Below the pieces are notes generated by a model, which saw only the letters and a program-made list of their open reading frames with translations, did no database searches and had not been told where the DNA came from. Both the position numbers and the translations under genes were made by a program. From an uncultured Acidobacteriota bacterium (GTDB lineage: Bacteria > Acidobacteriota > Thermoanaerobaculia > Gp7-AA8), in the NCBI GenBank assembly GCA_963822445.1, contig CAWGHO010000001.1, positions 480,001-544,000 of the forward strand: a stretch of 64,000 nt of DNA, read 5' to 3'. The stretch's first letter is position 1, and each line of letters starts with the position of its first letter. Positions 15,403-45,047 of the stretch are shown here, in pieces.

Positions 15403-15480
<78 letters not shown>

Positions 15481-15666: not shown

Positions 15667-16050
15667 TCAAAGCCGCTTCGGAAATCGGCCGGCGATCGGC
15701 GGCGGAACGTGCGGCCGGAGCGATGCGAGAGAGAGCGCGCCGCTAACGCGCGCTGACTGCCGCTGAAAGCGCGAACGGCGCACACCCGAAGGTGTACGCC
15801 GTTCCCCTGCGCGCGGCGGCTGGCGAGGCGGCAGGGCGTCACGCCAGCGACTCCTGAATTTTGGCGCATGCGTGGCGTAGTTGGTGAGGATCAAGCGACC
15901 CTGTGCGGCTTCGACGTAGACCTCTACCTCGATGCTGAAGCCGTGCTGCTTGAGCCAGTGGCCCGACAGGCGCAGCAAAGGGACGGTCTCACCGCCGGGC
16001 GTCGATGTGTAGCGGAGACCGCGATGCGACTTTCACGCAGGACGGCGTGC
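15667..16050 (-). pseudogene. SymE-like (AbrB-fold) toxin domain, frameshifted
   Basis: VPLLRLSGHWLKQHGFSIEVEVYVEAAQGRLIL matches the SymE PxLRLxGxWLxxxGF pattern; an in-frame stop just upstream implies frameshifts near 16,020-16,045. Confidence 0.65.
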
Positions 16051-16399
16051 GCGTGCGGCGTGGCTTCGGCGTTGCCGCAGCGGGCGCCACGGGCGCGATG
16101 GAATCGGGCGCGGCCGGGACGGGCTGCGCCTCGACGGCCGGCGACTGCGGCGCGGCTGCAGCGCGGCGGCGCGGACGCGAAAGCTTCGGGTGACGGTGAA
16201 GCGCGGAAAGAAGACGTGAGGGCATGACTTGTTCACCTCCGTTGGTGGCCTCGCGAATCTCGGGCGTGTGAGCGGAGCGGCGCGGTTTCATGGCGTGTTG
16301 ATCCTGAAGGTGAAGCGGTGCGGGGTGCCTAGCTGGCGAGGCCAGCGGTACGTCGCAGATCGGCGTTTGCTCGACGCCGAAGACTGTGGGCGATGCCGA

Positions 16400-17701
16400 C
16401 GACGGCACCGGAACGTCAGGACGTTCCCAACCGAGCACCATCTCCTGCATCAGGTCGAGCTCGATGTTGAAGTAGTGCTTGTTCACGGTCGCGACGCTCG
16501 TATCGCCCATCATCTTCACGACGGCGAGCAGGTGTGCGGGCGTTTTGCCGCGCTGCGCGATGTGCGAGGCGCCGGTGTGGCGGAAGTTGAAGAACTGGCC
16601 CTTCTTCCCTTCGAGGTCGTAGCCGAGCATGCGGCCGGCGATTTCGAGCGAGGCGATTCCACTGCTTGCGGATGTCGACGTACGGCTCGCCCGTTGAAGG
16701 GTTGACGTGGATCGGCCCGGAAGCGTTCGCGGGCCGAATGGACGCGAGGTAGTCGACCAGTTCCGCGGCGAGAGGGCCGCGCGCCTTGATGCCCTTGTTG
16801 ACGTTCTTGTGCTTGTCGAGCTGATACCAGCCGGTGCGGCTTGCGGGGTCTAGCGTGACCTCTTCCCACGTGAGGAAGCGATTGCACTTCGGCCGCATCA
16901 GCGTGTAGTAGCCGATGAGGCACAGCCCGCGGAGCGGGATGTACGAAGGCGACCGAAGGCCGCGGTTCTTCTTTTCCTGCGCAACGCGGGCGTTCCAGGC
17001 GGCTTGCTCGGCTTCGTACTCGCGGAGCGCTGGCCCCATGAGGATGCCGAGCTCCAAACGTGACCACGGCTCCGGCTCGTCATCGTGCACGACTTGCGGC
17101 ACCGGCACACCCTCTAAGTGATGGCGCGGGATGATCCGCTGCGCCTTCGCGCGGTTGAGCATCGCGAGGAGCATGTTTGCGTAATGGCGTTGCGTCTCAG
17201 CGCTGAGGCACCCGACCTCGGCGATCAGCTCCTCATAGAGCGGATAGGTCAGCGTCTCGATATCGCGCTCCGCGTCCGTAGAACGCTTCGATGGCGTCGA
17301 TGCGCGATTTGGCGTGGTCGTAATCCTTGCTTGTTGTCGATGAGGTACCGGCGATAGTTCGACGTGACGGCGAGGAAGCGAACGATGCTTGCCTCTTTAA
17401 CCTCGGCCGCTTTGGCGCGCACGACGCCAGCGTTCAGCTTCTTCTCCTCCGCCTCTTTCACCTGCTGCGCGGCGAGCTTCGATAGCTTCTTGTTACGAGG
17501 GTACGGCGAGTAACGCTTGATGCGAATGTCGATCGGCTCGGCTTCGATCTCCTCGATCGGCCGGCCCGTCTTCGCGGCGCGTTTCGCGCGGTACGGCGGA
17601 CACTGGTCGCACGTGCAGAAGGCGGGATGCGTAATCGGCGGCTCGATGCAGAGGCTACCGATGCGGCCCGAAACCCAGCTCGGCTCGGACTTATACGCCA
17701 T
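16400..17701 (-). pseudogene. Tyrosine recombinase/integrase split by at least 3 frameshifts (true 3' end uncertain)
   Basis: SD + ATG at 17701; pieces read ETQRHYANMLLAMLNRA, YYTLMRPKCNRFLTWEEV (catalytic R), HKN, FFNFRHTGASHI and MMGDTSVATVNKHY (catalytic Y); shifts near 17330, 17272 and 16645. Confidence 0.85.
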
Positions 17702-17898
17702 GTGTGTCTCCCTTACCCGCCGCGCGCGGCCGATCGCTCGCGGCGAGGTCCGCAAGGATCGGCCGCTGTTGGGTCACGCCGGAATGGAGGTTGAACCGGC
17801 GCGGCGCGGCGGAGGTGAAAGTGACGGCGAGTCCCTTACCTGCGGCCTGTCGTGAGTTGCGCTCGACCATCGATCACCTGTCAAGCGTTAATTATAGG

Positions 17899-17939
17899 TT
17901 CTCACTTGTGAGAAGACAAGCGTTATCATGACTGAGAAG
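17899..17939. promoter_or_regulatory. Paired operator TCA-N4-TGAGAAG, 24-bp spacing, between integrase and XRE
   Basis: TTCTCA-CTTG-TGAGAA (17899) and TTATCA-TGAC-TGAGAA (17923). Confidence 0.7.
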
Positions 17940-18000
17940 CATGCGAAAGCGGTCGTCGAGTGGACGGACTCCGCGCGGAAGCAGGGCGATACTTTCGCCG

Positions 18001-18414
18001 ATGGCAACGCGCACGCCGAGGGGCAAGGGAAAGACGTTCACGGAGGAGTTCGGAGAGCGGCTGCGGAGCGCGCGGGAGCGGCGCGGCTTCACGCAGGAGC
18101 AGCTCGCGGAGATGGTCGGCATCACCGCTTCGCGCGAATCGGAGTATGAAAGCGGACGCTTCGCGCCGCAGCTCGAGAAAGCGGCAAAGCTGGCGGTGGC
18201 GTTAGAGGTGTCACTCGATGCGCTGGTTGGACGCGACACACCCGAGGTGACCGAGGACATCCGCGATCCGAAGTTGCGGGCAAGCGTGCGAGAGCTGGAG
18301 GCGACGGCGAACGCGCGCTACCTCGACGCGGCAAGCCTGGCGGTGGAAGGCTTCGCATCGCTCGCGCGACATGACGAATTCGAGTCACGCCGGCCGAGGC
18401 GCCGGAAGCCGTAG
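18001..18414 (+). CDS. XRE-family HTH repressor
   Basis: FGERLRSARERRGFTQEQLAEMVG...YESGRFAP...LAVALEVSLDALVG; divergent from the integrase. Confidence 0.92.
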   Translation: MATRTPRGKGKTFTEEFGERLRSARERRGFTQEQLAEMVGITASRESEYESGRFAPQLEKAAKLAVALEVSLDALVGRDTPEVTEDIRDPKLRASVRELEATANARYLDAASLAVEGFASLARHDEFESRRPRRRKP

Positions 18415-18462
18415 CCCGGACGGGCGGGCGGCACGTGGTTCACGCCGAGCAGCCAGACGGAG

Positions 18463-18577
18463 CAGCCGACGCATAACTGCACGTCCTCTGCGCGTCACCG
18501 GCAGGGGTCAAGCCGGCCGGGCGGTGGAGGGCTTGACGCCTGCCGGTGACGCGCTATCACGTTGCATGCGTCGGCTG
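18463..18577. repeat. Long imperfect palindrome (attC-like)
   Basis: CAGCCGACGCAT/ATGCGTCGGCTG outer arms, GCGCGTCACCGGCAGG-GTCAAGCC inner stem, GCATAAC at 18471. Confidence 0.6.
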
Positions 18578-18675
18578 ATTCGGCGCCCGCAGCATGGAGG
18601 CGGGGCGGCGGACGAGCGATGCTCCAGAGGTCAGAGCACGTCGCGCTCCGTCGGCCATCGCTGCACTCACCCACG

Positions 18676-18741
18676 CGTGCTGCAGCGCACCGTTGTCAAG
18701 TCTCCCCGGCGAGAGACTTGATAACGGTGGGCTGCGGCACG
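18676..18741. repeat. ~29-bp-arm hairpin between convergent genes
   Basis: CGTGCTGCAGCGCACCGTTGTCAAGTCTC / GAGACTTGATAACGGTGGGCTGCGGCACG. Confidence 0.7.
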
Positions 18742-18785
18742 ACGTCCTAGCGCGATGGCCGACGGTCGTGTTTGCGAGTTAGTCG

Positions 18786-21338: not shown

Positions 21339-22320
21339 TGCCGAACACCGCACGCCAAGTTGTCTTCGCAGCCATGGAATGCCCGCGACGGTCGAGCGCT
21401 ACGGCGCGTTGCACCGCCTGGGAAGTCTTTCGTACTGCGAAGCGGTATCGTGCCTTCGTAGCGAGATTCACGTCGCGATCAAGCGCAGGTCCAAGATTCT
21501 TAGGATCGGGACAGGCCGCCATCAGGTGCGGATCTATGTTGGCAAAGAACCGAGCGAGATAGTCAGGAACAGACAAAGACGGAGGCGCGCCGTCAAAGAG
21601 ATTCAGTACTAGCGTCTCCAGATGGTACGACCCGAGCACCGGCTTGTGAGTTCGCTTGTTCCAGTACTTGATGAGTCGAATCGTGGGCCGCAGGAGACCG
21701 CCGTGGGCAGCATTGCAGCGGTCGATTCGTGCTGCATCAAGGCGCGGATCGGTCAGTGACCACTGCGCGCGGCCGTTGGGGATCGCGAAGACGAGATCGC
21801 CGGATTCGAGACGAATCGGGATCGCTGGTGCGATATCGAATGCCCAAGGCGTTGATGAGAGGTCAACGTTTACGACGTGCATATCTTTGCGAACGTCAGA
21901 GCGTCTGTAATGCGGCAGAGCCTGTACGTGATCTCGGAGCGCAAAAAGAAGCCGAGTCGAATTTAAGAAACCATTCTGCGCAAGCGTTGATAACGGATTC
22001 AGCGGATGCACGTGCAGCTGGTACCCGCCAAACGGCCAAGTCCTCAGCTCCGTACCCCAACCATCAAACAGCAGGAGGAGATCGAGATCGTCGAGAGGTT
22101 GCAGTTTCGTTCCTCGAGCGAAAGATCCGGACGGCAACCAGTAGCCGGTCGGAGCCGGGAACATAGTGCTGTCGAGGATGCGGTCGATGAGAAACTGCTG
22201 ACTGGATTTGGCGCGTTCCACTTGGGTTGATTCGAGATCGACGTGCTCGCGTCGGAACCTTGCGAATGCGTCGGCCACAGGAAAAAGGGACGGAGGAGGA
22301 CGAAGCGCGAATGTGCTCAT
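21316..22320 (-). CDS. CD-NTase / SMODS nucleotidyltransferase (CBASS cyclase)
   Basis: SGSFARGTKLQPLDDLDLLL (GS...DxD), FDIAPA, IPNG..W..TDPR, IRLIKYWN and SYHLE. Confidence 0.9.
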   Translation of the reverse strand: MSTFALRPPPSLFPVADAFARFRREHVDLESTQVERAKSSQQFLIDRILDSTMFPAPTGYWLPSGSFARGTKLQPLDDLDLLLLFDGWGTELRTWPFGGYQLHVHPLNPLSTLAQNGFLNSTRLLFALRDHVQALPHYRRSDVRKDMHVVNVDLSSTPWAFDIAPAIPIRLESGDLVFAIPNGRAQWSLTDPRLDAARIDRCNAAHGGLLRPTIRLIKYWNKRTHKPVLGSYHLETLVLNLFDGAPPSLSVPDYLARFFANIDPHLMAACPDPKNLGPALDRDVNLATKARYRFAVRKTSQAVQRAVALDRRGHSMAAKTTWRAVFGNEFPIYT

Positions 22321-22330
22321 CTACATGATC

Positions 22331-24202
22331 TCACTCTGCCGGTACCGACTCAGGCGTCAGCTGAGCGACTCCTGATGCGGGCTGCAGTTTGCCAAGTTTT
22401 GAGCCGAGTTCGCGCTTCACAGAGTTGTACACGTGGTAGCGGGGCATTACGACCGCAGTTAGTGCTTCTTCGGAGATGGCCTTCTCGATGTGTTCTGGTG
22501 ACCATTCGCGTGAATTACGAAGAGCTTGAGCGCCAATGACGGTCTCGACCAGAGATTGCTCGAACCACCCATGAACAGCCTCCGTCACTAGATCGCGGAT
22601 CGCAGTGGACGTCGGAAGGTCATGGCACCATTTATCGATCATGTCAGTGAAGACTCGAAAATCGGCATTGATGAGAAGGTGATTGAGTTCGGGAATGTAT
22701 CGTCCTGCGCGATCCTCAAAGTCCCCCGGCTCGCGCGTACCGTTCTTAACGCTGACCCAATCAACTTTGGGGAATAGATCCGGCCGGACGCGATCTCCCG
22801 GCGCACCGTCTGTTTTAAGAAAGACGGCATATATCCCTCCCGCCTGGCCACCCTTTGTCCCGGACCGTGAAGTTGATGCGGTCGTTGAGCCACCGGCACC
22901 TCTCGGTTCACCACCGCGAACCGTTTCGTCGGGGTCGACCCGCAGAGACCCGTTTGGCGTTACCCGATAGCGGCTGACTTTATAGAGATCTAGAATTTGC
23001 TTGAGCCGTTCCCGGATGGATTGAGAGTGATCCGATGCGGAGGATGCTGCCGCTTTTTCTTCGATCAATTGCTGAATTGCCTTGGGCATGGCAGCTCGAA
23101 ATTCCGAGGCCCAGTCGCTCCACGGCAAGGGTTCTCTATGGATGAGAAGCTGCGTGCGAGCCGTGTTCGTCGTAATGAGCTTGCCATCCTCGCCCAGCGG
23201 TTCAACGTAGATGACAACTTGCCGATGGCCAAAAAGTACCCCGAACTGCTGTAGCTTCGCCATTCCTGGGCGCGCCGTCGCAAGTTCATAAAGCTCACCG
23301 CGGTAGAGCGCGGCGACATGACCGGATGATTCGATAAAGCCGGAGTTCTGAGATAGCGAGTCGTCGTCGCGAAGAATCCACCAATGAGCTGTGGCATTTG
23401 ACAGGGAGACCGTGCCGGATCCGACAGCGTGCTTCTGCAGATACTCGCGCTGGCCCGTTAGCGTGCGAAGCAAGTTGCGATCTTTGTCGGAGCGTGGTGT
23501 TTTCCAGCCCTCGCGCGCCTTGACTGTTATGCCGGAAGGAAATTCAAAAAAGCGACTGTTGAGATACTTGCTGATCCATCGCGATGGAGAGGAGGCCCCG
23601 GGCGGCGCTGTCATCGTATCGGCATTCGGCGAATTGCCCATGAGCAACACCATGGTGCCGTGATCAGCGATTAGCGGTGGACGAACGGTATCGTCAACTT
23701 CGACAAAGTGAGTCCAACCGCCATCGGGTAGCGGAAACTGCCGCAGTCCGTACTGACCGGTTTCAGGATCGCGCCACAAATGAAGCATCGTCCCGCGGCC
23801 GTTCTTCCAAGATAGGTAGATGAGGCCGTGGTGATTGCGCGTGGCAGCGGCGATCTTTGCTCCGACACCAAAGTTCCCCGTGAGTGACTGCTCGGAAACG
23901 GACGACGAGAGCTGGTTAAGGTACTTAACCATTTCGTCGCCTGTCATCCCCTCGCCGGTGTCGGTAATTGAGAGCTTGTAGGCGCCCGTTTCGTCTAGCT
24001 CAAACGAGTTCCAGTCAACGTCCCATACGATCTCGCCCGTACGATCAGGCGTGCGCTGAATGGCCTCGATGGCATTTTGGGTCAGCTCACGGAGAAACTG
24101 CAGGGGATGACAGTCTTCGCCCAGACGGTCGAGCAGGAAACCAGTGTTGGCTACTTTGAGTGGGTAAGTCTTCTCGGACGACAAGCGGAGCGGCTTCGCC
24201 AT
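22331..24202 (-). CDS. GHKL (MORC/Hsp90-like) ATPase with an unknown C-terminal region
   Basis: LRELTQNAIEA, ITDTGEGM, GNFGVGAK and HGTMV motifs; GGAGG SD before ATG 24202. Confidence 0.85.
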   Translation of the reverse strand: MAKPLRLSSEKTYPLKVANTGFLLDRLGEDCHPLQFLRELTQNAIEAIQRTPDRTGEIVWDVDWNSFELDETGAYKLSITDTGEGMTGDEMVKYLNQLSSSVSEQSLTGNFGVGAKIAAATRNHHGLIYLSWKNGRGTMLHLWRDPETGQYGLRQFPLPDGGWTHFVEVDDTVRPPLIADHGTMVLLMGNSPNADTMTAPPGASSPSRWISKYLNSRFFEFPSGITVKAREGWKTPRSDKDRNLLRTLTGQREYLQKHAVGSGTVSLSNATAHWWILRDDDSLSQNSGFIESSGHVAALYRGELYELATARPGMAKLQQFGVLFGHRQVVIYVEPLGEDGKLITTNTARTQLLIHREPLPWSDWASEFRAAMPKAIQQLIEEKAAASSASDHSQSIRERLKQILDLYKVSRYRVTPNGSLRVDPDETVRGGEPRGAGGSTTASTSRSGTKGGQAGGIYAVFLKTDGAPGDRVRPDLFPKVDWVSVKNGTREPGDFEDRAGRYIPELNHLLINADFRVFTDMIDKWCHDLPTSTAIRDLVTEAVHGWFEQSLVETVIGAQALRNSREWSPEHIEKAISEEALTAVVMPRYHVYNSVKRELGSKLGKLQPASGVAQLTPESVPAE

Positions 24203-24436
24203 CAAAATCCTCCATCGCGGGTCGGTAGGTGTGCGACCTCCCCACGTTTGAGTGTCGCGGCCGGCCGGCGGCAATGGGGAGCAACTCGCTCGCGATCGCG
24301 TGCCGGGCCAAGTCAACGACTGTTACAGCAAAGTATACCTGACGCAGCGGAGGGTCGAGCGGAGATGATCGCTACGAGGGAAGCTACGAGTTGCCGCACC
24401 GGCGAGATGCCTCAAATGCCAACGCGGGGGGGCGCC

Positions 24437-24746
24437 GGCGCGGCGCTTGCCCGCGGGACACGCGCGTGCACCACACGGACACCCGCTGCAAGCGACGTGA
24501 CGGCGCATGGGCGGTGGAAACGTGCGGCCGCGACGAGCGAACCCACAGGCGATGGGAGGGTGGGAAGTGGCGGCGCCGTTTTTGCGGCCGAGCCGCGCCG
24601 CTTTCATCCCATCGTTCTGCAAAAACGGTGACGCCACGAGGGGGCCGGCGATCTACACCCGGTGGACAACGCGACGCGCACGCAAGGTGCGTTGAACGAT
24701 CGACGAAGCGACCCATGTGCGTGATGGGCGGGCCGTGGGCGGAACA
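24437..24746. repeat. Hairpin-repeat cassette 1 (2 units + terminal motif)
   Basis: GGCGC-N5-TTGC...GCAA-N5-GTGAC at 24437-24501 and 24572-24632; terminal motif at 24718-24746. Confidence 0.8.
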
Positions 24747-24807
24747 TAAGAGAGAACTGGCGATCCCCGCGGCAACACCGCTCCATGCGATGCGCGTGCG
24801 GCTGCAA

Positions 24808-26295
24808 TTAGGTCGTCCGGCACGGGCATTGTGCGTAAATCTCACCACTGCCGCATGGGCAGGGACCGTCGGCGACTTTACGAGCCAGGGTTTGGAGAAA
24901 TTCCGGCGGTCTTTCGTTATATTCCGCGGGAAAGATCATTTGCGACTCGACTGGGCGTCTCTTACGGTGGAGTTCTCCCGCGGTTTGTGCGTCTTCTGCC
25001 GACCAGATGCGTGCGTTGAAGTACATGAGGTCTTCGGAACGATCAACATGATTGAATCCGGCCTCCCCCGCGATCCCAATGATGTCCGTGGCGCTGGGGT
25101 GGCGATGCTTGAGAAGGCGGCACTCGGTTTCCAGGATCGCGGCACGACGTTCGCGATATTCTTCGTACGTCATTGACGCAAGTCGCGGAACGAATAGGAA
25201 GATCCAGCACGTCTCGTCTGCGTCACTTGGCACCAAACAACGTGTGTACGTATCGGTGGGAGTTGATTTCGTAAGACCTTCTAGCCACATCCGCCCCAAT
25301 GTTCGGCGACGCACTCGGCCCTCGCGAGCCATGAAGCGAAGAATAAGCTCTGAATCACTAAAGGAATCGTGCGGGTATGCAAACCATCGCCGGTCGTCGA
25401 GCGTGTTCGTAGCTGAAGCGTCGATCATGCGGTCCCACGCATAACTGAGATCGTTCAGTTCTTGCTCGTGCTTCCACCAACCGGAAGCCTCTAGTTGTTG
25501 CCACTGACCTTCGTCAATTTGGATCCCTTCCGACGTTAACTCCACGGCGAAAACACGCTGACCGAAGGGGCCGACGTTAGGCAGGTAGGCCGCCAGAAGG
25601 TCCTCCTCTGAACGCGCAAGCAAGGGTATCGGCGACCGCAAAAGTTCTTCCTTCGCGGCAAGATAGTCGACGAAATCTGTGATGGTGTCGAGAGAACGCA
25701 GCACGATTGGAAGGGACGCGTCGTCGAAGATGTGGACGAACGTTTTTGTGGGACATAGTTCCCCGGCCGTGAAAGGTTTTTTCAGGAGGTCGTCTTCTGC
25801 AAGCATGTTTGTGACTACGAGTCCGCCGGTACCGCCGAGAGCTTGGCGGGTTCGCTGGACTGAGCCGTGCGCCACTACTAGCAGATGGTATTTTGCGTCT
25901 GCGAATGAAGGGATGGACACCGGGAATCTTTGCTTACAAGCTCGGTCAACAAAGATTCGATCAGGATGATCTTTGACCCATCGTTCGGCACCCCGCAGTT
26001 GCTTCTCCGCGGCAAGGACACTTCGTCGGTACCACCGACTCCAGTCGAGTTCTGAGTTCTCGGTCGATGGGAAAACGCAATGTTTGTCGGAAAAGATCAG
26101 TATATGGTTTTCAAACACGACCAAGAGGTCGCAGAGTTCCTTCCCCTCACCGGTTTGACTGACACCCTTGTCTTGGTAGACGCAAGGGTAGCTCCATAGA
26201 CGTAGAAACGTGCCTTCGCAGAGTTCAGCGACAAATCTTTCGGATTCCGTTGTCGGCGAAGACTTCCTGATCGGATCGCGTTCTCGTTCGTCCAC
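24808..26295 (-). CDS. NERD-like nuclease-domain protein with a C-terminal SEC-C motif
   Basis: GKELCDLLVVFENHILIFSDK (PD-(D/E)xK-like) and CPCGSGEIYAQC. Confidence 0.7.
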   Translation of the reverse strand: MDERERDPIRKSSPTTESERFVAELCEGTFLRLWSYPCVYQDKGVSQTGEGKELCDLLVVFENHILIFSDKHCVFPSTENSELDWSRWYRRSVLAAEKQLRGAERWVKDHPDRIFVDRACKQRFPVSIPSFADAKYHLLVVAHGSVQRTRQALGGTGGLVVTNMLAEDDLLKKPFTAGELCPTKTFVHIFDDASLPIVLRSLDTITDFVDYLAAKEELLRSPIPLLARSEEDLLAAYLPNVGPFGQRVFAVELTSEGIQIDEGQWQQLEASGWWKHEQELNDLSYAWDRMIDASATNTLDDRRWFAYPHDSFSDSELILRFMAREGRVRRRTLGRMWLEGLTKSTPTDTYTRCLVPSDADETCWIFLFVPRLASMTYEEYRERRAAILETECRLLKHRHPSATDIIGIAGEAGFNHVDRSEDLMYFNARIWSAEDAQTAGELHRKRRPVESQMIFPAEYNERPPEFLQTLARKVADGPCPCGSGEIYAQCPCRTT

Positions 26296-26465
26296 GAGAG
26301 GCGCAATGCAAGGGTGCCGTCATTTCTTCCGCTAGTTCGGTCGAGCTTACTAGTTCGGCGGCTTCCACTCAGCGTAGAACAGTGCAGTGTGCATAGCGCT
26401 ATCGAGCCCGAAGGAGAGCGGGTGATGTTGAAGTGAAGCGGGACATTTCCGCAGAATTTCCCACG

Positions 26466-26771
26466 ATGGCTGCGGAAATCACCACACGGAAGGTCGGAAC
26501 GAAGTGGCACGGCTACATCGCTGGCCGGCCGGACCTCGATGAGACCGCGCTGACGGAAGAAGCGGTGCGGCGGAAGATGGAACAGTTGCGCGATCGCATC
26601 GGAGCATGCGGCGCGAAGACGAAGATGTTCGGTGGACGAACGTGTGAACTGATCGCGGGCCACCACGAGCACGGCGAAAGGTACAACGTTCATCGAAGCG
26701 GGACCATCACATGGTTCGATGTGCCGCCGGATGAACCGCGCGATCGCGAGAAGGTTGGGCGGGCGGCATAG
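26466..26771 (+). CDS. Small hypothetical protein with a possible Cys/His metal site
   Basis: ACGAK...TCELIAGHHEH...H pattern; coding-like composition. Confidence 0.55.
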   Translation: MAAEITTRKVGTKWHGYIAGRPDLDETALTEEAVRRKMEQLRDRIGACGAKTKMFGGRTCELIAGHHEHGERYNVHRSGTITWFDVPPDEPRDREKVGRAA

Positions 26772-27428
26772 GCCCCGGGCGGGAGCCGCGCCGCCGGCGC
26801 CGGGGGCCGCGGAGCCGATGTGCGGCCGAAGCTGCGGCCCGAGGGCGGGCGGTGGCGGACGGGCCGCGCTCGGCCGCACATGGGCTCCGCGGCGGGAGGG
26901 CGGAAGCGCCGGGCCGCGGAGCGCAGCTTCGGCGGCAGGGGGCGCGGGCGGCGGCGCGGCCGAAGGTGCGCGGAGCGGCAGCGCGCGAGCCGAAGGCGAG
27001 CGCGCGCGGCGCGGCGAGGGGGAAACGTGCAGCGCCGATGCAGCACGCCACCGACGGCGAGGCGCACCGCGACCAACGGAAGCGGTGCGCCGGTCAAGCC
27101 GCTGGTGGCGCTGGCGAGACAGTTTGCTGCGCTCTCGGCAGAGAAATGGCCACTGGTTGACGGAACCCCGCGAGGTTGGGGCGCGGCGGCGTGAGCCGCG
27201 CCCCAACGAGCGGGCGGGGGCCTGGGTGGGAGCCGCGGCGCAGGGCGCTGCGAAGCTGCGCCCTGCGAGCAGCGCGCGGCGGACGCGCGCGGAGGTGGAG
27301 CCGGGGGGCGCGCCGCCTGCGCTGCGGCCGCGGCGAGGGGGAAGCTGCGGCCGCGACGCAGTAGCGGACGACGACGCACGCGGCGAATAAGGGTTGGGCG
27401 GTGGAGGGTGCGGCCATGGAAAGCGATC

Positions 27429-27574
27429 GCGCCTAAGGCTCGGCTAAGCTGCGTGGACCGCTTGAAAGTGATTCGCAGCGGGAACCTCCCCAGCGCGCTG
27501 CACGCGAGCGAGTGGAAACGCGCGGAGCCACGAAGCAGCGGGCCACGACAGCTTCAGCCGCGACCGTTAGGCGC
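27429..27574. repeat. attC-like recombination site
   Basis: GCGCCTAAGG..CGGCTAAGCTGCGTGGACCGCT / AGCGGGCCACGACAGCTTCAGCCG...CCGTTAGGCGC; long stem with unpaired extra bases and a GTTAGGC box. The partner box lacks one base. Confidence 0.6.
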
Positions 27575-27670
27575 AGCCACAGGCGCACACGTCGCGCATG
27601 CACGAGGACGGGCGTGGAAGCGCGCGGGCTCCGGGACGCCCGAAAGGCCACAGGCGAGGCGGCGCGGCGT

Positions 27671-28161
27671 GGCGCGACCGTTGCCGCGCGCACGGATCGC
27701 ATTCCTTTTCGCGCGCGCCTGCAACGGGCGTGACACGGCGCGGGCTTCACGAGGATCCGGGAAACGTGACGAGCTCGCGGGGTCGGGCGCGGGCAGCAAA
27801 AGCAATGTCGTCGGCGCGCCGGCGCGGCGTTTGCCCGCGCTGACGAGGCGCCACGCGAAAGAAGCCCGCTGCAAACGGCGTGACCGCGCGCGGGAGGGGG
27901 AAACGTGCAGCCGCGCAGAGCAAACCGACGGCGCGGGAGGGCGTGCAGCTGGCGGCGCCGTTTTTGCGGCTGGGCCGCGCCCGTTTCACCATGCCGATCT
28001 GCAAAAACCGTGACACCAGCGAGGGGGCGCGCGCTACCGCGGTAGCAGCGCACTGTAAACGAAACTTGCGCGCCGCGCGGGCGCGCGAAGGTGCGCTGCG
28101 CGTCGCGCGAACATCGCCATGCAACGAGCAGTTGCGTGATGGGCGGGCTGTGGACGGAACA
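27671..28161. repeat. Hairpin-repeat cassette 2 (3 units + 31-bp terminal motif)
   Basis: Units at 27671-27734, 27821-27884 and 27954-28014; terminal motif at 28131-28161. Confidence 0.82.
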
Positions 28162-28343
28162 AAAAAAATGAACGAACAACAATAGGGATTGTGACTATGG
28201 GACAAGCGTGCTCGCCGCGCGAGCGCGAGGACCCCGGCGCACCAGGAGCGCGGACAACCTCATGACCCGCACAAGCCACACGGGCGGGCGGTGGAGCGGT
28301 GCCTGTCGCGATGCCCTTCCCTACTTGCGGGGGCGGGAGCCGC

Positions 28344-28771
28344 GGCGCGGCCGTTGCGTGCGGGCGGCGCGCGACAGCGCGACGTCCCGCATGCAACGGA
28401 CGTGACGCGGCGAGGGCGGGGGGCGGGCGGGTGGTCCGCGATGCGCGTGCCACTCGCGCGGGGGGAAGCGGCGCGCCCGTTGCCGCGAGCACGGCGGCTT
28501 CATCGCGGTCCGAGCATGCAACGGGCGTGACGCGAGGGCGGGCGGGTGTCGCATCCGCGCCGAACGTGCCACTCGCGCGGGCGGGAGCCGCGCGGCGCGA
28601 CCGTTGCCAGCGAAGCACGGCCGCTTCATCGCGGTGCAAGCGTGCAACGGGCGTGACGCGGCGAGGGTGGGCGGGGTCGGGTCGGACGTGTTCGCGAGCA
28701 ACACGCGCCGCGGATCGGCGCATGTCGATCGGAGCGTGCAGTTGCGTGATGGGCGGGCTGTGGACGGAACA
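28344..28771. repeat. Hairpin-repeat cassette 3 (3 units, ~125-bp period, + 31-bp terminal motif)
   Basis: Units at 28344-28406, 28470-28531 and 28594-28657; terminal motif at 28741-28771 is identical to 28131-28161. Confidence 0.85.
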
Positions 28772-29136
28772 GAAAAGCCTCACGCGGCATCACGTGCTGC
28801 TGCATCAATGTCGGCAAATGTTCCTCTTCGACGACATCCGTGTCATACGCGATGACTTCACGTTGCCGGTTTCGCTGCGCGAAGTGATCGCGGGTCGGAA
28901 TCGCTCGTGCGGCTCTCGGCGTAAAGCGTCGGCGAATCGCACGTATCTGCGCGTCGATCGGATTCAAGCGACGCGGTGTGGTTTTCGCTCGTCAAGCCGT
29001 CGACGCGAAACGACCCGGCATCGTCCGCTATCGATCCCGGCGCGCTTTTAAGTCGTCGCCGGTGGCTTCGCGGTGCTCGAGCTGGTGCGCGAAACGGCTC
29101 CGGCGCACGTCGAAATGACGCTTGGGGCTTCCGGGT

Positions 29137-29287
29137 GATGCCGGGGCACTATTTTTTGGCCGTGGGGCACTTCGCGGTGATGCCCGGAAAGCTCTAATCG
29201 ATGTCCCGGGAGCTGTTTTTGAGGCCCCGGGAGCCGTTTTCGAGGGCCGGGCGGCCGTTTCCGCGGCCGGCGCGCTTTTAAGTGATG
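29137..29287. repeat. Degenerate ~21-bp tandem repeat
   Basis: CCCGGGAGCTGTTTTTGAGG / CCCGGGAGCCGTTTTCGAGG / CCGGGCGGCCGTTTCCGCGG and related units. Confidence 0.6.
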
Positions 29288-29453
29288 TGGGCGATGGATG
29301 GTGGAGGTCAGGCCATGGCCATCACCGCGTCTCCCATGCCGGCGACAGCTTGCCTATCCCGATACTCCCCACGATCTGCACGGCGATCATCCCGAGATAT
29401 GCGGTGCAGTAGAGACACGTCGGCATACCGGGTATGAGCATCAAAGCTTCTGA

Positions 29454-32400
29454 CTATGCCGGGATCAATTCATTGTCGACCGCTTTGATCACGATCCCAT
29501 CCACCGCCGCGAGCAATTGAGGCGTGAGGTTGTTGCGCACAACGGTTAGGGGCTCGAAGGACATCGGTTCAGCTTCTTCGATCATCCTGCGCAACGTTGC
29601 GAGAAACTCCATCAAATTGCGAACGGACTCGGCCCCGTCATCGAAGAGCGATACAGGCAGCATCTCCGCGATCTCAGACGACCTCTGCAAACGATGAATC
29701 AGTTCCGATGTCGCATTGCTCCAGTGCTCTTGCAGCACCACCGTTCCGACACCAGTCGGAGGTGGAGCTTCGTCGATCCCGAGTAGCGCTTCGACCTCGG
29801 CGACTGCGAGCGCGATCTCCGCACGAAGATTCCGCGCCGTCTCTGCGAGCGTCTGCGGATGCAGCGGAATGCCGAGTCGTGTCCAGACGGAATCGTCGAT
29901 GGGAAGAGGCAGGAGCCGCCATCCCGGGAGTTCGTCATCAGGCTGCGGAAGCGTCGAAATCATGAGCGTGCGGCGCGTCGGCTCGAGCGCCTTCCCGCGA
30001 ATCAGGCCGACAAAATGAACTTCTCCCCAAACGAGGTCGAGCGCGTAGCGTTCGACTGCTTCGAAGTCGGGCGGTGGACGAAGGGTGTCGATGGTTGTCG
30101 CAATCACCGCAGCAAGACCAGCGTCGGTGTCAGCCGCGGTATCCACGTCGAGGACGACCCACAGTCCCGCTCCATCCGACCACCGGTCGATCTCCGCATG
30201 AATTCTGGAGCGTGCTTGCGTTAGCGCTTCGAGCCGGCGCGTGAGCTCACGCCGGTACTTCGAGATGACCTGATCGATCTTGGCGCGGGATTCCCGCGTA
30301 GCATCGGTCGGGTATTGCCGTGGGTCGTAGGCGAACTGATACCAGACGGCCCAAAGATTCCATAGCCATGTCTGTTCCTCGTCTTCCAGCGACGGAAGAG
30401 AACCTTGCGCGAACCGCCCGAATCGGGATCGGAACTCATCCTGAAACCGTCGAAGTGCCTTCACGGCATCGGCCAGTCGCCACGTGGGCAGGTGGGGAGT
30501 TTTTCCGCCGGCATGTTCTTCGAGGAGGGCTTGCGCGCGCTCAATCCCGTCGGGAGAAGGACGCCCCAGATCTGGGTTCGCGCGAAGATATGGAATTGCA
30601 GCGCTCATGAAATCGGAAAGCGCATTCGCGTAGTCGTAGAGCGCTTTCAGAAACTCGCCAATCTCATCGCGCGGGTCGACCGTTCGCGCTTCGCTGCGCA
30701 GCCTCACCTCGTAGCCCAGCTCGTCCACAGCCGCGTTCGGAGGCTTCGGAAGCCGGCGCAGCGCTTCGTTGAGCGCAAGCCACTCATCGAGGTTCGCTCC
30801 GAGCTCGAAGATGTGCTTGGGTTTGTCGCGATTGAAGTACTTGCGCAGCGCGGAAACGACATCACGCGCGAGCGCGACGACACGCTGGCGCAATTCCAGA
30901 ATCGCTTTCGCGTATTCACCCCAAGGCAGATAGACGCGCGCGGCGTGCGAAAACAGAAGATGCAGACGTGTGGCCCACGGTACGGGAAACGACTGCTTTG
31001 GAATGCCCTTCTTCTCAGACGGATCGTGCGCGAAGATGGCCATCCCCGCGACGCCGCATGCTCGAGCGCCGAAGGTGCTCTCGTCCGGGAAGAGACGGCG
31101 CAAGACATCGACCCGCCGGATGGTCTCTCCATGAAGATCCAACGGCGCAGACGGAGCGGGCGACATGACGTAGTACGCCATGACTTCACCATCGTCGATG
31201 TCAATCGCGAACGTCGCTGACTCCTCCTGGAACCGCGCGATCAGCGTCTGACGGAGAGACTCAAAAGCCTCCGGCCGCGCGTCACGGGATTGGAACGAGA
31301 GCGCGAAGACGAAGTCGGCACATGTCTCCAGCGAAACATCTGTCTGGCTTGCCGTCAGACGTTGGGTCGCACTCGCCATCGCCGCCGGGTCAACGACGTT
31401 CCAGGCGATCGCCCAGAAGAGCATTTCCGCCACCGCTGACCAATCGGATGAAGGAGTCGCGAGCACGGACTTGCCCGCACCTCCGAGCCAAGCGCGCGCT
31501 TCTTCGAACACAGGCTCGTTCGATGGAATCCGCGATTGCACATCGGCGTACCACTCCCGCTGACTCGGCACCATTCCGAAGATCGTGTCGAAATTGTCCG
31601 AGAAGCCGGGGATGAATTGTTTCAGGCCTGCAGGGTCGAGGATGCCCCATGCGATCTCGGCTCCGCCCACATGCACGCGAATCTCCTCGAGGATGGCCCC
31701 ATGTTGCGCGCGGTATCGCTGGATTCCGCGCCAGAGCAACGCGCGAACGACGCCGACGGCCCCCGTCATCGTTTCGGGTTTGAATGTGCGAACGTGCAGC
31801 AAGATCGCCTCGGCTTCCGCTTCAGACCGGCGCGCGAATCCGTGCAGGAGAAACGCTTCGAGGTCGGCCTCATCGAGCGACGCCATCGCTGCAATGGCCG
31901 CCTCGGACCACGATGGGTCGAGCTCATCCCGTGTGAGGAGATCGGCCGTGAGTTGCGACCGCAGAGGATGTAGCCCTTCGGCATAGAGTCGGTCTTTCGA
32001 CAACCGGATCAGGTACTCCTTCTCGAACAACTCCAGGGTGTGACTCGGCAGAGCAAGTCCGAGATCTGCCACAGCCGTCGGGAGTCGCACGCGGCCGCCC
32101 ACCGACGAAGCCACGGCGATGCGACGCAACAGATCCAGCTCTGCGGGCTGCAACTCGCCGCGCCGCACGTCCTCCTTCAATCTCCGGATTTGGCTGTCCA
32201 GCGTCTTGCCGAGGGCTTCGCCCTTCGTGACGAGATACGTGAATTCCATGAGCGGGCCGGCTCCGCCGAACTTCGTCCAGGCGTCCGCGAAATCGAGGAA
32301 CTCTCCCGAGACCTCACGGCGCTGGAGATCAGCGAACACGAGCGCCGCTTCCTCTTTATCGAGCGCGAGATCGATCTCCGCGGCGGACAGCGTCACGCCG

Positions 32401-42620: not shown

Positions 42621-43083
42621 TTTCCGCCCGATCTCGGAAACTCTGGCGCATGGCACGCCGATGGCGGATGGTAGGGAAACGTGCCGGAATGACACCCCTA
42701 CAGGGTAGGGAGAGTTGTGCGTCGCATCCGGCCCCCGGCCTGGTAGATCGGCGCGACCGCCGCGCAGCGCGCCGGTCACGACGATCGGGGTGGGCGGCGT
42801 ACTCTCAGGGCGGCGGGATCTCTCGGGGGTGGTGAGCCCGGCGCGGCCGTTGCGCAGGCAGCGGACGTGACGGGCGGGGGTGGCGCGGCAGAATCTACGA
42901 GCGGTGGAGTCCCCCGGAGGGACGGGCGGCGCGGCGAGGCCGGCGCGAAGCGGCGGACGCGACGCGCGGGGGGCGCGCGGCCGCATCTACCAGGCGTAGA
43001 GCGCCTCGAGCGCTGGCGGTTTACCCCTCCTCTGCTGGGCCGATCGCCCGCGACCAGGAACGATCGCCGGCGCGAGCTCGCGG

Positions 43084-43300
43084 AAGTGAACCGCGGGCAC
43101 TTTCAAATGCGGAGCGATCAAAAACACGCGACCCGCGGTCACTTAAAAGTGAGCGCGGCGCACGTTCAACTGTCCTCAAGTTGAGATCAAAGTGAGGCGC
43201 GGTCACTTTCACTGTCCTCCAGACGAGAAGCAAGTGACCGGCGATCACTTTCACATGCCCGCGCGTCGAGTGAAAGTGACGCGCGGGCACTTAAAAGCGA
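43084..43300. repeat. ~21-bp tandem array with palindromic AAGTGA-N7-TCACTT units
   Basis: GTGAACCGCGGGCACTTTCAA, GCGACCCGCGGTCACTTAAAA, GTGAGGCGCGGTCACTTTCAC, GTGACCGGCGATCACTTTCAC and GTGACGCGCGGGCACTTAAAA. Confidence 0.8.
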
Positions 43301-43311
43301 AACGCGCGACG

Positions 43312-43911
43312 TCACCGCGTCTTGCGGCGAGGATGCGCACCGGACGGCGGCGACGTGACGGCCGGCGACGCGGCGCGAGCAGCCTTCGCGCGGCGCCAGC
43401 TCCGGAAGCGGCGAGCGAAACGGCGATCCCGCTCCGCGTACGCGAGCAGCGCCCGAATGAACGGCGACGTCCAGCCGTCGTACGCGAGCGAGAGAGTGGC
43501 CACGAATTCGCGCTCGCGTGACGTCTCTTCCTCGCGGTCGAGAGCACGCACCGCGAGGACGGTGCTCAGCACGGCGTTGACGTCGAAGGAATCGCGCCGC
43601 CAGCGCCGCACCGGGTGATTCTGGGTCCCGATCGGATCGGGCTTACCGAGCAGCGGAGGAACGGCGCACTTGCTGGCGCGCCAAGTGCGGAAGCGGCGGG
43701 CGACGCGCTGGGCGCGTTCCATGTACACCACGGCTGCAATGATGAAGATCGAAGCCGAATGACGGCGGCCGTCCGTGAGTGCTTCGTGCACGAAGCTGGT
43801 GAACACGTCGTGCATGCGGGCGTCCGCCTTCGCGAGATCGCGCAACGCGAGGCCGGCGTTGATGATCAACGCGACGTCGATCGACTCCGCGGCATTGCGG
43901 TAATGCCTCAT
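43312..43911 (-). CDS. Hypothetical protein made of two internal repeats
   Basis: SIDVA..LALRDL..DG..FI..YMER..VARRFRTWR recurs as SFDVN..LAVRAL..DG..FI..YAER..FARRFRSWR; ATGA-coupled. Confidence 0.7.
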   Translation of the reverse strand: MRHYRNAAESIDVALIINAGLALRDLAKADARMHDVFTSFVHEALTDGRRHSASIFIIAAVVYMERAQRVARRFRTWRASKCAVPPLLGKPDPIGTQNHPVRRWRRDSFDVNAVLSTVLAVRALDREEETSREREFVATLSLAYDGWTSPFIRALLAYAERDRRFARRFRSWRRAKAARAASPAVTSPPSGAHPRRKTR

Positions 43912-45047
43912 GCGCGCCTCACCACACGCTGCGCGGCGACGGCGGCAGCGGATGCGGAGACGCGTTGCCTCCGGCCGACGCGCGCGGCCACCACTTGCGC
44001 GACGGTGCCCGGCTGCTCAGCCGGAGACTGCGCCGCCTTCTCTGCCTGCGCGGGATCTTTGACGGTGATGACGAGGCAACCTTGCGACGCTTTGATGTAG
44101 ATGCGCGTGCGCGTCTTGAACCCGAACGACGCGAGCCAATGACCGCGCAGCCGCAGGAAAGGCACGAAGCGCTGATAGCCGAGTTCAAAGTAGCTGAGCG
44201 TCGCTTCGCGGATGCCATCGGGACGGTTGCGCCGCGCGGGCGCCGGCGACGTCTGCAGCGGTTCACCCGAGCGACGGCGCGCGCCGAGACGCCGACGACG
44301 TTTCGCCGGCGACTCGGGAACGTAGGGCATCAGCGGAGGCAACGGAGCAGCCGGAACAGCGACGCCCGGCGCGACGCCGGGCGATGCGCTGCCGTGGTCA
44401 CGGATCACCGAAGGTGCGGCAGCGACCTCCCGCATGGGCGGCGGCCGATCACAACCGCGAGAAGGCGGCGTTGCGGCAAGAGCGGGCGGCGGGATGAGGG
44501 CACAGGTGCGCGCGCTGCGGCCGCCCACTCGGGCAGCGCGCGCAACATGAACGCTGACAGGATCGGCGGCAGCGGTGTGCTTCGCCTCCCCCATGAACGA
44601 GGCAGCATCGTTGAACACGGGCACGTTGGCGACCAGCTCCGTGATGTGCTGCGCGGCGTAGTCGTCCAGGATGCGACCGAGCACCGTTTCTTTCGACTCG
44701 TTCCCCTTCTTGGCGAAGTACTCGAGCATCGCATCCGCGTACTCGTGGACCGGGACGATCAGCGGGCGGACGAGCAGACCGGGAGGAAAGACGTTGACCA
44801 CGTTCGGTCCTAGCGCTTCCTGAATGACCGAAAACGGCCATTGATGCGTGGCCTTTTCGATCAGTTCTGCGCGCGAGATCCGCGCGTCTTCTGCCGTGGG
44901 ATCGAGCTCGATATCGCCCCACTTGATGGCCTTGTCCATTTCGTCGAGCGTCCAGCCGAGCAGTTCCGCCGCGTGATCGGGCGTGACGGGCTGGCCGTCG
45001 TGTAGGAAGATGGCGCAGATGGATTTGACGAGGTCTGAATTCAGCAT
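43908..45047 (-). CDS. Multi-domain protein: excisionase-like HTH / RHH-like segment / linker / SymE-like domain
   Basis: TPDHAAELLGWTLDEMDKAIKWGDI; PVHEYADAMLEYFAKKGNESKETVLGRILDDY; VPFLRLRGHWLASFGFKTRTRIYI; GGAGG SD. Confidence 0.65.
   Translation of the reverse strand: MLNSDLVKSICAIFLHDGQPVTPDHAAELLGWTLDEMDKAIKWGDIELDPTAEDARISRAELIEKATHQWPFSVIQEALGPNVVNVFPPGLLVRPLIVPVHEYADAMLEYFAKKGNESKETVLGRILDDYAAQHITELVANVPVFNDAASFMGEAKHTAAADPVSVHVARAARVGGRSARTCALIPPPALAATPPSRGCDRPPPMREVAAAPSVIRDHGSASPGVAPGVAVPAAPLPPLMPYVPESPAKRRRRLGARRRSGEPLQTSPAPARRNRPDGIREATLSYFELGYQRFVPFLRLRGHWLASFGFKTRTRIYIKASQGCLVITVKDPAQAEKAAQSPAEQPGTVAQVVAARVGRRQRVSASAAAVAAQRVVRRA

Follow-up and report, generated by a model that had tools for sequence, protein, structure and literature searches.

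Integron attC sites are the closest described relatives of the array analysed here, together with clusters of attC sites that lack an integron integrase, which were reportedly named CALIN by Cury and colleagues in 2016. The term CALIN requires two or more bona fide attC sites. In the portion of one structural account that was available (Bouvier et al., 2009, PMC2727003), attC is an imperfect palindrome that forms a hairpin, with one strand favoured, and its R and L boxes are separated by an unpaired central spacer and by extrahelical bases. Its ends carry the R'' (..AAC) and R' (GTT..) boxes, mutually complementary heptanucleotides at which strand exchange takes place. In the same portion, conservation was described for the end boxes only, and the tip was called 'variable' (PMC2727003). 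Taxon-specific attC types, Acidobacteria included, are also described in the available part of a later paper (Ghaly et al., 2021, PMC8352920).

The window, which is the whole stretch of 64,000 nucleotides that was analysed, carried eight hairpin units starting at 24437, 24572, 27671, 27821, 27954, 28344, 28470, and 28594, all on the + strand. Each is a free-standing copy of the hairpin at the apex of this lineage's integron attC sites. The hairpin pattern matched eight times in the window, whereas 100 dinucleotide-preserving shuffles gave a mean of 0.00, and all of the eight units claimed in the sequence-only reading were present at their starts. The claimed period of 124–150 bp within groups agreed with the measured spacings (135; 150 and 133; 126 and 124 bp), and the variable bases beside TTGC/GCAA were complementary in all eight units, as had been noted. 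The pattern itself was correct; the true unit was longer than that reading saw. From the outside inward, a 6-bp outer helix is followed by a G•A mismatch and then by a CGCG:CGTG helix that contains one G•T; next come an R•G position, mismatched or paired, a helix of 7 bp, and the loop. The units were 61–65 nt long and were imperfect palindromes with strand-biased folding.

The units belong to a core of ~3.3 kb that comprised hairpins in pairs or arrays, spacers rich in G, a 28-nt terminal motif in repeated copies, and a single small ORF. In this genome the core spanned 4.9 kb because of an inserted gene. Its features, and one further hairpin of the window, were as follows.

24431..24507, + strand: HPa (unit 1) with its 6-bp outer helix, 65.2 bits on + and 22.6 on -
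24514..24525, + strand: gga motif (GTGGAAACGTGC) in the HPa-HPb spacer, with more copies at 27019, 27512, 27758, and 27897
24566..24638, + strand: HPb (unit 2), 67.4 bits
24718..24745, + strand: TERM1, the 28-nt terminal motif; similarity to relatives ends just 3' of it in this genome
24808..26295, - strand: gene for a 495-aa protein, lower in GC, function not assigned
26466..26771, + strand: small conserved ORF of 101 aa with third-position bias, the sole coding part of the core
26772..27640, + strand: non-coding, G-skewed stretch of ~74% GC with other long hairpins and gga motifs, kept in congeners
27665..27740, + strand: HPc (unit 3), 70.2 bits, loop 94% conserved among orthologues
27815..27890, + strand: HPa' (unit 4), a paralogue of HPa
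27948..28020, + strand: HPb' (unit 5), a paralogue of HPb (79% over 80 nt)
28133..28160, + strand: TERM2, terminal motif
28338..28412, + strand: HPd1 (unit 6), 64.6 bits
28464..28537, + strand: HPd2 (unit 7)
28588..28663, + strand: HPd3 (unit 8), 70.5 bits
28743..28770, + strand: TERM3, terminal motif
28791..29300, + strand: conserved non-coding tail of the core, ending in a TERM-like AAGTGATG..GGG, beyond which species diverge completely
42834..42877, + strand: ninth, minimal hairpin of the same family with a 4-nt loop, 39.1 bits (E 8.4e-7)

The ninth hairpin lay in a separate non-coding gap, with gga-like and GGTGGGCGG motifs close by. The 495-aa gene was missing at the same position in G005, G008, and G018, which indicated an insertion or replacement within the core. 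The 101-aa ORF might encode a HicB-like N-terminal domain, although the fold match was weak, and its C-terminal half was rich in Cys and His. No codon periodicity was found in 26770–29300 or 24400–24800, where indels of 1–2 nt were abundant. The earlier statement that no credible ORF covers the units thus held for the array, which is non-coding with no conserved frame, but it had missed the small conserved ORF at 26466–26771. The GGAAACGTG-like motif said to follow several units was real and conserved, at 24514 and the other gga positions given above. A search of 23500–29500 returned no Rfam match at E ≤ 1, an outcome that would otherwise have counted against the sequence-only proposal, and no other copies of the window modules were found in the rest of the 6-Mb genome.

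Covariation was assessed in an alignment of 46 units from seven genomes. In this alignment 96.8% of the cells were paired, compared with 79.3% in shuffles, and the covariation score was 0.418, compared with 0.113 (0 of 500 shuffles as high), the inner-pair statistics being biased and partly circular because units were selected by pattern match plus an inner complementarity of at least 7 of 9. Both sides had changed in 9 of the 17 pairs, and slid controls scored at most 0.092. The outer helix took no part in the selection, yet it covaried as well. The view that pairing is conserved while the sequence varies was therefore borne out by strong covariation.

The folding strand was the + strand for all units in the window. 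The G•U pair was retained in 43 of 44 rows of the alignment; a covariance model scored the window units at 53–70.5 bits on + versus 15.6–34.6 bits on -; and as single-stranded DNA the + strand was more stable by 4–8 kcal/mol. The equivalent strand in the integron was the bottom (recombining) strand, with the integron polarity taken from one duplicated cassette. By hand pairing, the arm-length asymmetry beside the R boxes of the main-array attC sites looked opposite to the published EHB rule, so the folding-strand assignment is set by cassette boundaries and wobble pairs only.

The asymmetric hairpin GGCGCG-N4-TTGC / GCAA-N4-CGTGAC, with its G•A and G•T mispairs, is the tip of the attC sites of the same genome. 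The canonical attC sites were ~200 nt long (GCCTAAC…GTTAGGC), and 50 sites outside the window aligned as GCCTAAC...hairpin...GTTAGGC. The chromosomal integron was located on another contig (C2:2120555-2226600), where ~94 long attC matches spread over ~106 kb beside an intI gene (456 bits versus a cut-off of 265 bits), and the GGCRCG...CGTGMC centre existed in nearly all of these ~94 sites. Isolated attC sites and small clusters were also found outside the main array. A covariance model built from the window units matched ~69 sites in the genome that were either attC or a second kind of element (class 2, compared below). The hairpin core was further observed inside attC on contigs of Steroidobacteraceae, Pyrinomonadaceae, Thermoanaerobaculia, Eisenbacteria, Bacteroidales, and Treponema. 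The sequence-only reading knew of no named element with such an architecture; that was wrong, since the hairpin is the apical module of attC sites in the same genome.

The full-length attC profile gave a single match in the window, to HPd2, and it was limited to the central hairpin (model positions 60–129). A box-pair scan of 22001–31000 found no R''/R' candidates, compared with 5 distinct sites (8 strand-specific matches) in 20 kb of the array used as positive control, and the outer helix of the units showed no conserved AAC/GTT. The units failed the attC end-box test (complementary R''/R' heptanucleotides) and passed the folding test (imperfect palindrome with one strand favoured). They had two 1x1 mismatches (G•A; R•G) around a 4-bp helix and no bulged bases, and their likeness to the unpaired central spacer (UCS) was one of geometry only. 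They also failed the cassette-layout test, in which attC sites lie at the 3' ends of cassettes and intI/attI at the end of the array. There were no ORFs between units at the 124–150 bp spacing, no integrase match to TIGR02249 at E ≤ 0.001 in the window (the intI of this genome being on contig C2), and no recombinase among the 48 window ORFs scanned against Pfam. Lacking R/L boxes, the window units are neither attC sites nor cassettes. The 'three cassettes' described before are accordingly not cassettes: their units have no boxes and stand 124–150 bp apart, with no cassette-length spacing. The suggestion of folded single-stranded recombination sites pointed to the right relatives, namely the attC apex, but the units are probably not substrates of IntI, given the missing R''/R' boxes, the short spacing, and an ordered array that is conserved across species.

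Of 35 congeners, 11 retained the core with its order and sequence conserved, and so did other genera of the family. Between species, the identity of the non-coding core was 74–86%, close to the 72–91% of the genes that flank it. Stems were better conserved than loops in most units, and the copy number of HPd-type units varied from 2 to 4 by species. Every strict-pattern match in G007, G008, and G018 was inside the core. Among the 11 core-bearing genomes, two had no intI match and two had fragments only; in G007 and G018 the core was present with no detectable intI, which genome incompleteness may hide there. The units have thus been retained in related species without the parts that IntI cuts, and they probably have another role at a hotspot of gene swapping.

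Gene slots with contents that differed between species lay on either side of the core and interrupted it; in this genome they held CBASS, a HATPase protein, a STAND NTPase, and PDC-S39. The edges of the variable cargo were sharp and coincided with the HPa foot and with TERM-like motifs, and similarity across species started ~3–9 nt to the left of HPa. In all seven genomes compared, the first ORF beyond HPa was on the opposite strand and read away from the core, with starts taken from a crude ORF caller.

Here, the explanation that we favour, and to which we give an even chance, is that strand-specific folded hairpins punctuate a cargo-exchange hotspot. The hairpins would act as folded, strand-specific single-stranded nucleic acid, and whatever binds or reads them would not be the integrase active site. 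They may form the fixed punctuation of a hotspot of defence-gene exchange, with a boundary 5' of the variable cargo, and they could serve as conserved homology anchors between the slots; they would not be sites of IntI cutting. DNA was favoured over RNA because the mispair asymmetry is kept in attC, whose folding strand is not cassette-coding. However, a long structured RNA would be in keeping with the fixed unit order, the 94% conserved HPc loop, and the ORF on the + strand, and the exchange of cargo could be ordinary homologous recombination between conserved flanks to which the hairpins are unrelated.

Such an RNA would be transcribed from the + strand of the core; it could be a long, structured non-coding RNA or a small-ORF mRNA with structured 5' and 3' parts. 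Its hairpins would be protein- or RNA-binding modules through which the defence genes nearby are regulated, for instance in a divergent or antisense manner. A processed ncRNA array was among the proposals of the sequence-only reading; no RNA run was found to contain this DNA. The covariation and the conserved G•U are compatible with RNA, as are the distinct units in fixed order across genera, the HPc loop (94%), the small ORF on the + strand, and the cargo genes that diverge from HPa in all seven genomes. We nevertheless consider it unlikely, if well worth keeping in mind: no Rfam family was matched, there is no conserved promoter upstream of HPa, as conservation begins at the hairpin foot, and stems are better conserved than loops in most units. 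The identical mispair asymmetry in attC, on the non-cassette-coding strand, points instead to selection at the DNA level. Cutting by IntI or by a structure-specific recombinase at or near the hairpin foot would make the units non-canonical functional recombination sites that capture cargo, and this would account for variable DNA starting a few nt from the HPa foot and after TERM-like motifs, and for 2 to 4 HPd copies. When compared by hand with the available portion of the published description (PMC2727003), the 6-bp helix, the 6-nt part-mispaired spacer, and the 7-bp helix with GTT/AAC resemble R box-UCS-L box. Functional sites of this kind are improbable, because AAC/GTT is not conserved in the outer helix, the inserted 495-aa gene brings neither an attC site nor a hairpin with it, searches of the window turned up no recombinase, the core persists with no detectable intI in G007 and G018, and the order of units is stable across genera, unlike that of shuffling arrays.

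Scarcely credible, and already disfavoured, is a fossil CALIN, in which the units would be decaying remnants of an old attC array with no present function. An attC apex that has lost its R/L boxes would fit this, as would the isolated attC sites and small clusters elsewhere in the genome. However, compensatory changes maintain the pairing, the core is as similar between species as the flanking genes (74–86% versus 72–91%), the architecture is kept in other genera, and decay would be expected to remove the variable tip before or along with the boxes. A sigma-54 promoter combines GG and GC elements at a distance of 10 nt with a downstream gene in the same orientation, and it calls for an activator and for RpoN; its consensus is TGGCACG-N4-TTGCW, and sigma-54 binds fork junctions. 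The 5' arm of the units might be a promoter of this type (GG-N10-GC), as duplex or as folded strand, driving short transcripts or primers; in the folded form, the stem would end exactly at the -12 GC, adjoining unpaired bases. The resemblance noticed earlier is real in its GG-N10-GC spacing, and rpoN is present in the genome (478 bits). The arm reads GGCGCG-N4-TTGC, many attC copies read GGCACG-N4-TTGC, and in attC variants located through their flanks, not by the pattern, no letters are kept better than GG and GC. Yet we hold a promoter to be very improbable. The T before GG is missing, TGGCACG-N4-TTGC occurs 0 times genome-wide, and the gene arrangement is unsupportive: the integron motif is on the strand opposite to the cassette genes, and the small ORF is the only co-oriented gene after the arrays in the window. 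In addition, no activator gene was among the 48 window ORFs scanned against Pfam, a promoter leaves the covariation of the outer helix unexplained, and bare hairpins in other phyla do not share a consistent context. No paper was found to link attC with RpoN, as judged by title or abstract.

We give only a slim chance to a wider explanation, in which the hairpin would be an autonomous, integrase-independent module, its arrays a 'switch-region'-like recombination or priming element that exchanges defence genes at a chromosomal hotspot, and attC a structure built around it. The G-rich strand could then form hairpins and G-quadruplexes, and attC sites in several phyla would have been built later. 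If so, the arrays would be a living relative of the long-sought attC precursor.

Against the description of the tip as 'variable', attC sites from several phyla share one defined hairpin at the tip, its mispairs fixed, and the same hairpin stands alone, under selection, in arrays that may mark swap sites of defence genes. If it has its own binding partner or activity, it would be an extra functional part for integron sites, a handle on the folding or recognition of long attC sites, and a concrete candidate for the origin of attC sites. The rest of the genome thus allowed what had seemed an unknown ncRNA array to be resolved.

Compared with the attC sites of sedentary chromosomal integrons, the window units share the stem sequence, the mispair geometry, and the folding strand with the attC tip (the variable terminal structure), but they have no R''/R' boxes, no intervening ORF, and no nearby intI. 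Moreover, attC arrays shuffle, whereas the window units are fixed in order across species. As in CALIN, co-oriented hairpins of integron type are clustered far from an integrase among accessory genes; the members of CALIN, however, are full attC sites that bound cassettes, whereas the window units fail the box test and bound none. Identity with CALIN was rejected because it depends on attC sites, and the units fail the end-box and cassette-layout tests. REP/BIME palindromes and MITEs are GC-rich intergenic hairpins, sometimes in tandem, with many dispersed genomic copies. The window units are likewise GC-rich, intergenic, and at times tandem, but they are not dispersed: among the matches listed, those outside the window came from the integron array or from small clusters of attC sites, which does not fit the genome-wide REP/MITE that the sequence-only reading had set against its own proposal. 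The class-2 element is a non-coding element of ~420 nt within eight cassettes of the genome's integron; it folds on the bottom strand and lies 5' of diverse, partly defence-type genes, such as TIR. It matched no Rfam family, and nhmmer gave no link between it and the window modules. It differs from them in having a single hairpin inside a larger multi-helix structure and in being carried in mobile cassettes, but it has in common with the window units the hairpin and the flanking G-rich motifs (GCGAGGGTGGGCGG, GGCCGCGACGAGCG, and GAGGGGGAACGTGC).

Eight matches to the pattern GGCGC-N5-TTGC / 30–40 nt / GCAA-N5-GTGAC were found in the window, all on the + strand, against 0.00 expected. They coincided in position with the eight units that the sequence-only reading had listed.

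24437 and 24572 (+), starts of hairpin units HPa and HPb
27671, 27821 and 27954 (+), starts of hairpin units HPc, HPa′ and HPb′
28344, 28470 and 28594 (+), starts of hairpin units HPd1, HPd2 and HPd3
42834–42877, ninth unit with a short loop, a covariance-model match

That reading had recognized the hairpin correctly and underestimated its extent, as each hairpin is longer than described. Inward from the 6-bp outer helix, a unit has a G•A mismatch and then a CGCG:CGTG helix containing one G•T. A second mismatch or pair separates this helix from a 7-bp one, which meets the loop with TTGC/GCAA. A covariance model built from the units and run on the window returned exactly the eight units and the ninth copy.

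The reported covariation was confirmed in an alignment of 46 units from the source genome and six congeners. Paired cells reached 96.8% (79.3% in shuffles), the covariation score was 0.418 (0.113 in shuffles, none of 500 reaching the observed value), and 9 of 17 pairs changed on both sides; because the units were selected by the pattern plus inner complementarity, these statistics are partly circular for the inner stem. When the partners were slid by 1–3 columns, the score was at most 0.092. The outer helix, which was unused in the selection, covaried too; one pair, for example, was CG in 21 units and GC in 20.

The cross-species mismatches in 26770–29300 lacked codon periodicity and 1–2 nt indels were abundant, and the same non-coding signs were found in 24400–24800, which rejects a conserved coding frame over the units. 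The exception in this non-coding region was a small ORF (26466–26771), in which a third-position bias was present. The fold was strand-biased: G•U was retained on the pattern strand in 43 of 44 alignment rows, the covariance-model scores were 53–70.5 bits on that strand vs. 15.6–34.6 on the opposite one, and as ssDNA the pattern strand was more stable by 4–8 kcal/mol. Only three G-quadruplex motifs existed in the 64-kb window (27212, 28414, and 28665), all within 26772–29300 and on the + strand, the one that folds into the hairpins.

The hairpins are organized in three composite modules, HPa-gga-HPb-TERM, HPc-HPa′-gga-HPb′-TERM, and HPd (three copies)-TERM, where TERM denotes a 28-nt motif and gga a GGGGAAACGTGC-like one. 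The whole block (24426–29300, the core) was found in the same order and with 74–86% identity in the congeners G005, G007, G008, G014, G018, and G023, and modules M2-M3 were present in 11 of the 35 genomes of the genus; the genus counts for strict pattern, block conservation, intI, and core cover G002 and/or G041, two unpublished genomes, and no specific claim rests on either. The source genome contained no other copies of the window modules. They are therefore not a dispersed repeat, and a genome-wide REP/MITE was rejected.

The small ORF, which encodes 101 aa, was the only conserved coding part of the core. It had 74 relatives, nearly all unnamed and none with a Pfam domain. The N-terminal half of its protein had a confident predicted fold of three strands and a helix. 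The fold search gave no match at E ≤ 0.001; the antitoxin 3k6q came first (probability 0.89, E 0.62) and HicB entries ranked below it, so a HicB-like protein is only a lead from the predicted structure. The 495-aa gene at 24808–26295 was absent at this position in G005, G008, and G018, indicating an insertion, and it carried no hairpin of its own. This lineage-specific protein belonged to no Pfam family and had a very weak PADLOC match in its non-catalytic part to RT_UG26 (reverse-transcriptase-associated; E 8.7e-4).

Across the class, the covariance model matched in 20 of 151 genomes, and in 15 of 35 in the family of the window. The same HPa-gga-HPb pairs with a period of ~135 nt occurred in genomes of other genera (G091, G112, and G053). 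TERM was also present in G091 and G112, and G091 had in addition a 66%-identical small ORF and an HPc with the same loop core. The core architecture predates the genus.

Conservation started no more than a few nt from the foot of HPa and ended just past a TERM-like motif near 29300. The outer flanks were conserved between species up to about 18774 on the left and beyond about 38450 on the right, and the DNA between these flanks and the core differed from species to species. The slots of the source genome contained CBASS (cyclase plus 4TM effector), a HATPase protein, a STAND NTPase, and PDC-S39; those of G008 a Type II methyltransferase and an MzaB-like protein; those of G005 a DUF3800 protein and unknowns; and those of G007 unknowns. 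In 7 of 7 genomes, by crude ORF calls, the first ORF beyond HPa was on the opposite strand, reading away from the core. The hairpins keep a constant position bordering the variable gene slots.

On its left, the variable region was flanked by the following stretch, conserved with the relatives.

15403–15479, tRNA-Asp gene
15667–18774, SymE-like ORF and HTH_3 regulator

No integrase was seen beside the tRNA-Asp gene. Further to the right, a series of short repeats of the CACTT(T/A)(C/A)A / GTGAAAGTGA type was observed at 43080–43310, just upstream of a gene with a SymE-toxin-like domain (43312–45071, – strand); these repeats may form an operator or an iteron array.

The whole genome contained 46 exact pattern matches, most of them on another contig (C2), co-oriented and 1–6 kb apart. 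C2 also encoded a genuine integron integrase (intI, 2118113–2119048, + strand; TIGR02249 456 bits vs. a 265-bit cut-off). Aligned with their flanks, the sites outside the window formed a ~200-nt repeat starting with GCCTAAC and ending with GTTAGGC, the canonical R″ and R′ boxes, with the hairpin at its centre. Because of this central position, the unit is the tip of the attC sites of this organism. The repeat profile found 94 long copies in C2:2120555–2226600 and small clusters elsewhere. Nearly all long copies had a GGCRCG...CGTGMC centre, and the strict pattern fitted 38 of 108 long attC sites genome-wide. The integron (C2:2116000–2230999) is large, sedentary, and chromosomal; its attC sites are ~200 nt long vs. 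a published range of 57–142 nt, and several of its cassettes encode TIR-domain proteins.

Pfam found real genes on both strands of the integron. Cassette orientation from ORF picking was mixed and unreliable and was dropped, and a duplicated cassette was used instead. The ~100% identity of its copies began at the right R box of the attC with the lower coordinate and extended over a non-coding element and a TIR gene to the far end of the higher-coordinate attC, which it included in full. Two 40-nt bins were lower (78% and 95%), and identity dipped to 85% where the insertion of copy B had been left out. At the lower-coordinate attC, the copies were merely 44–85% identical. These boundaries indicated that the cassettes are read on the C2 + strand, as intI is, which makes the pattern strand the bottom one, in agreement with the G•U retention, model scores, and ssDNA stability. 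Applying the rule for extrahelical bases (EHB) by hand pairing gave the opposite polarity. By hand pairing, the arm beside the cleaved R box was 2 nt longer than its partner in all main-array attC sites, which places the extra bases on the R′-L′ side, opposite to the published rule; this reflects either a hand-pairing error or a trait peculiar to this integron clade. One copy of the duplicated cassette carried a ~1-kb insertion with a 311-aa ORF exactly at the attC start (C2:2203360–2204392). This ORF recurred in the array in both orientations, and the insertion thus looks like an attC-targeting insertion sequence.

The window units are not attC sites, as the cutting boxes are absent. The full attC profile had a single match in the window, confined to the hairpin part (model positions 60–129). 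A scan of 22001–31000, with low but not zero sensitivity, found no stable fold closed by complementary AAC/GTT boxes; on 20 kb of the array it recovered five distinct sites (eight strand-specific hits). One palindrome candidate of the box scan (45964–46134) lay inside an ORF, had the look of chance, and was discarded. The earlier interpretation was right in part; the hairpins are relatives of integron sites, and neither cassettes nor an unknown class.

Full-length intI was present in 20 of the 35 genomes of the genus. Among the 11 core-bearing genomes, it was full-length in seven, represented by fragments only in two, and absent in two, namely G007 (97% complete) and G018. Every strict-pattern match in G007, G008, and G018 was inside the core.

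With one genome scanned per species, at least 118 loci with the pattern were found, against an estimated couple of hundred chance matches to the pattern alone in 596 Gb; the scan fixed 18 letters and does not measure how conserved those letters are. At least four of the five N5 bases were complementary in 102 of the 154 matches listed, so most of these are real hairpins. At least 27 of the listed hairpins lay between complementary AAC/GTT boxes (an undercount) and at least 21 were bare with an outer helix, 54 being left out of this classification. Among the matches listed, attC sites of three architectures contained the hairpin, and its GC-rich core was conspicuous in the AT-rich attC of Bacteroidales and Treponema contigs. 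One uncultured bacterium (about 50% GC) carried bare pairs of the same hairpin family ~83 nt apart at three loci outside any attC (L066:785–931, L061, and L059); their loops were AT-rich, and they shared the A•G mismatch. In a Planctomycetota MAG, the hairpin lay within two inverted ~130-nt repeat copies 4.6 kb apart (L069:1055–1120 and 5738–5803), an arrangement like mobile-element ends, and also on several other contigs.

A non-coding element of ~420 nt (class-2) lay 5′ of diverse genes, TIR among them, in eight cassettes of the integron; its copies included the following.

L150:7842–8273, class-2 element
L149:14112–14530, class-2 element
L152:5743–6165, class-2 element

It contained the same hairpin as the units, G-rich motifs seen also in the window spacers, and several covarying helices that folded better on the bottom strand. 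nhmmer gave no link between this element and the window. No Rfam family was found for it, the matches being far-sub-threshold microRNA/sRNA entries (best 46 bits vs. a gathering score of 197), and it may represent a new structured RNA or ssDNA element carried by integron cassettes.

The hairpin design is identical to that of the attC tip, and its folding is strand-biased. Here, an explanation to which we give about an even chance is proposed: the units would act folded, as single-stranded nucleic acid, more likely DNA than RNA, be recognized by a partner other than the active site of the integrase, and provide the fixed punctuation and the homology anchors of a hotspot of defence-gene exchange. 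A structured RNA of the + strand is a weaker candidate, though one to be taken seriously; the window region had no Rfam match at E ≤ 1, and a known family was thereby set aside.

Non-canonical recombination sites are unlikely, and no integrase was found in the window by TIGR02249 and Pfam searches. It is somewhat less likely still that the units are sigma-54-type promoters: rpoN exists in the genome, but the strict consensus is absent from it, and the gene context is unsupportive both in the window and at the bare hairpins of other phyla, where the ORFs around 21 loci had no consistent arrangement. Remnants without function are the least probable, and the hairpin units are under purifying selection.

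No description of this hairpin or of free-standing arrays was found in the portions of the literature available, and supplementary attC model alignments might show it. Taxon-specific attC types, Acidobacteria included, were modelled previously, and the available part of that report does not mention a shared attC tip (Ghaly et al., 2021; PMC8352920). The hairpin occupies what Bouvier et al. (2009; PMC2727003) call the "variable terminal structure" atop the L stem. This supposedly variable tip holds a defined, recurrent module, relevant to specialists of integrons and defence islands, and the module is also retained by itself at a site of defence-gene exchange.
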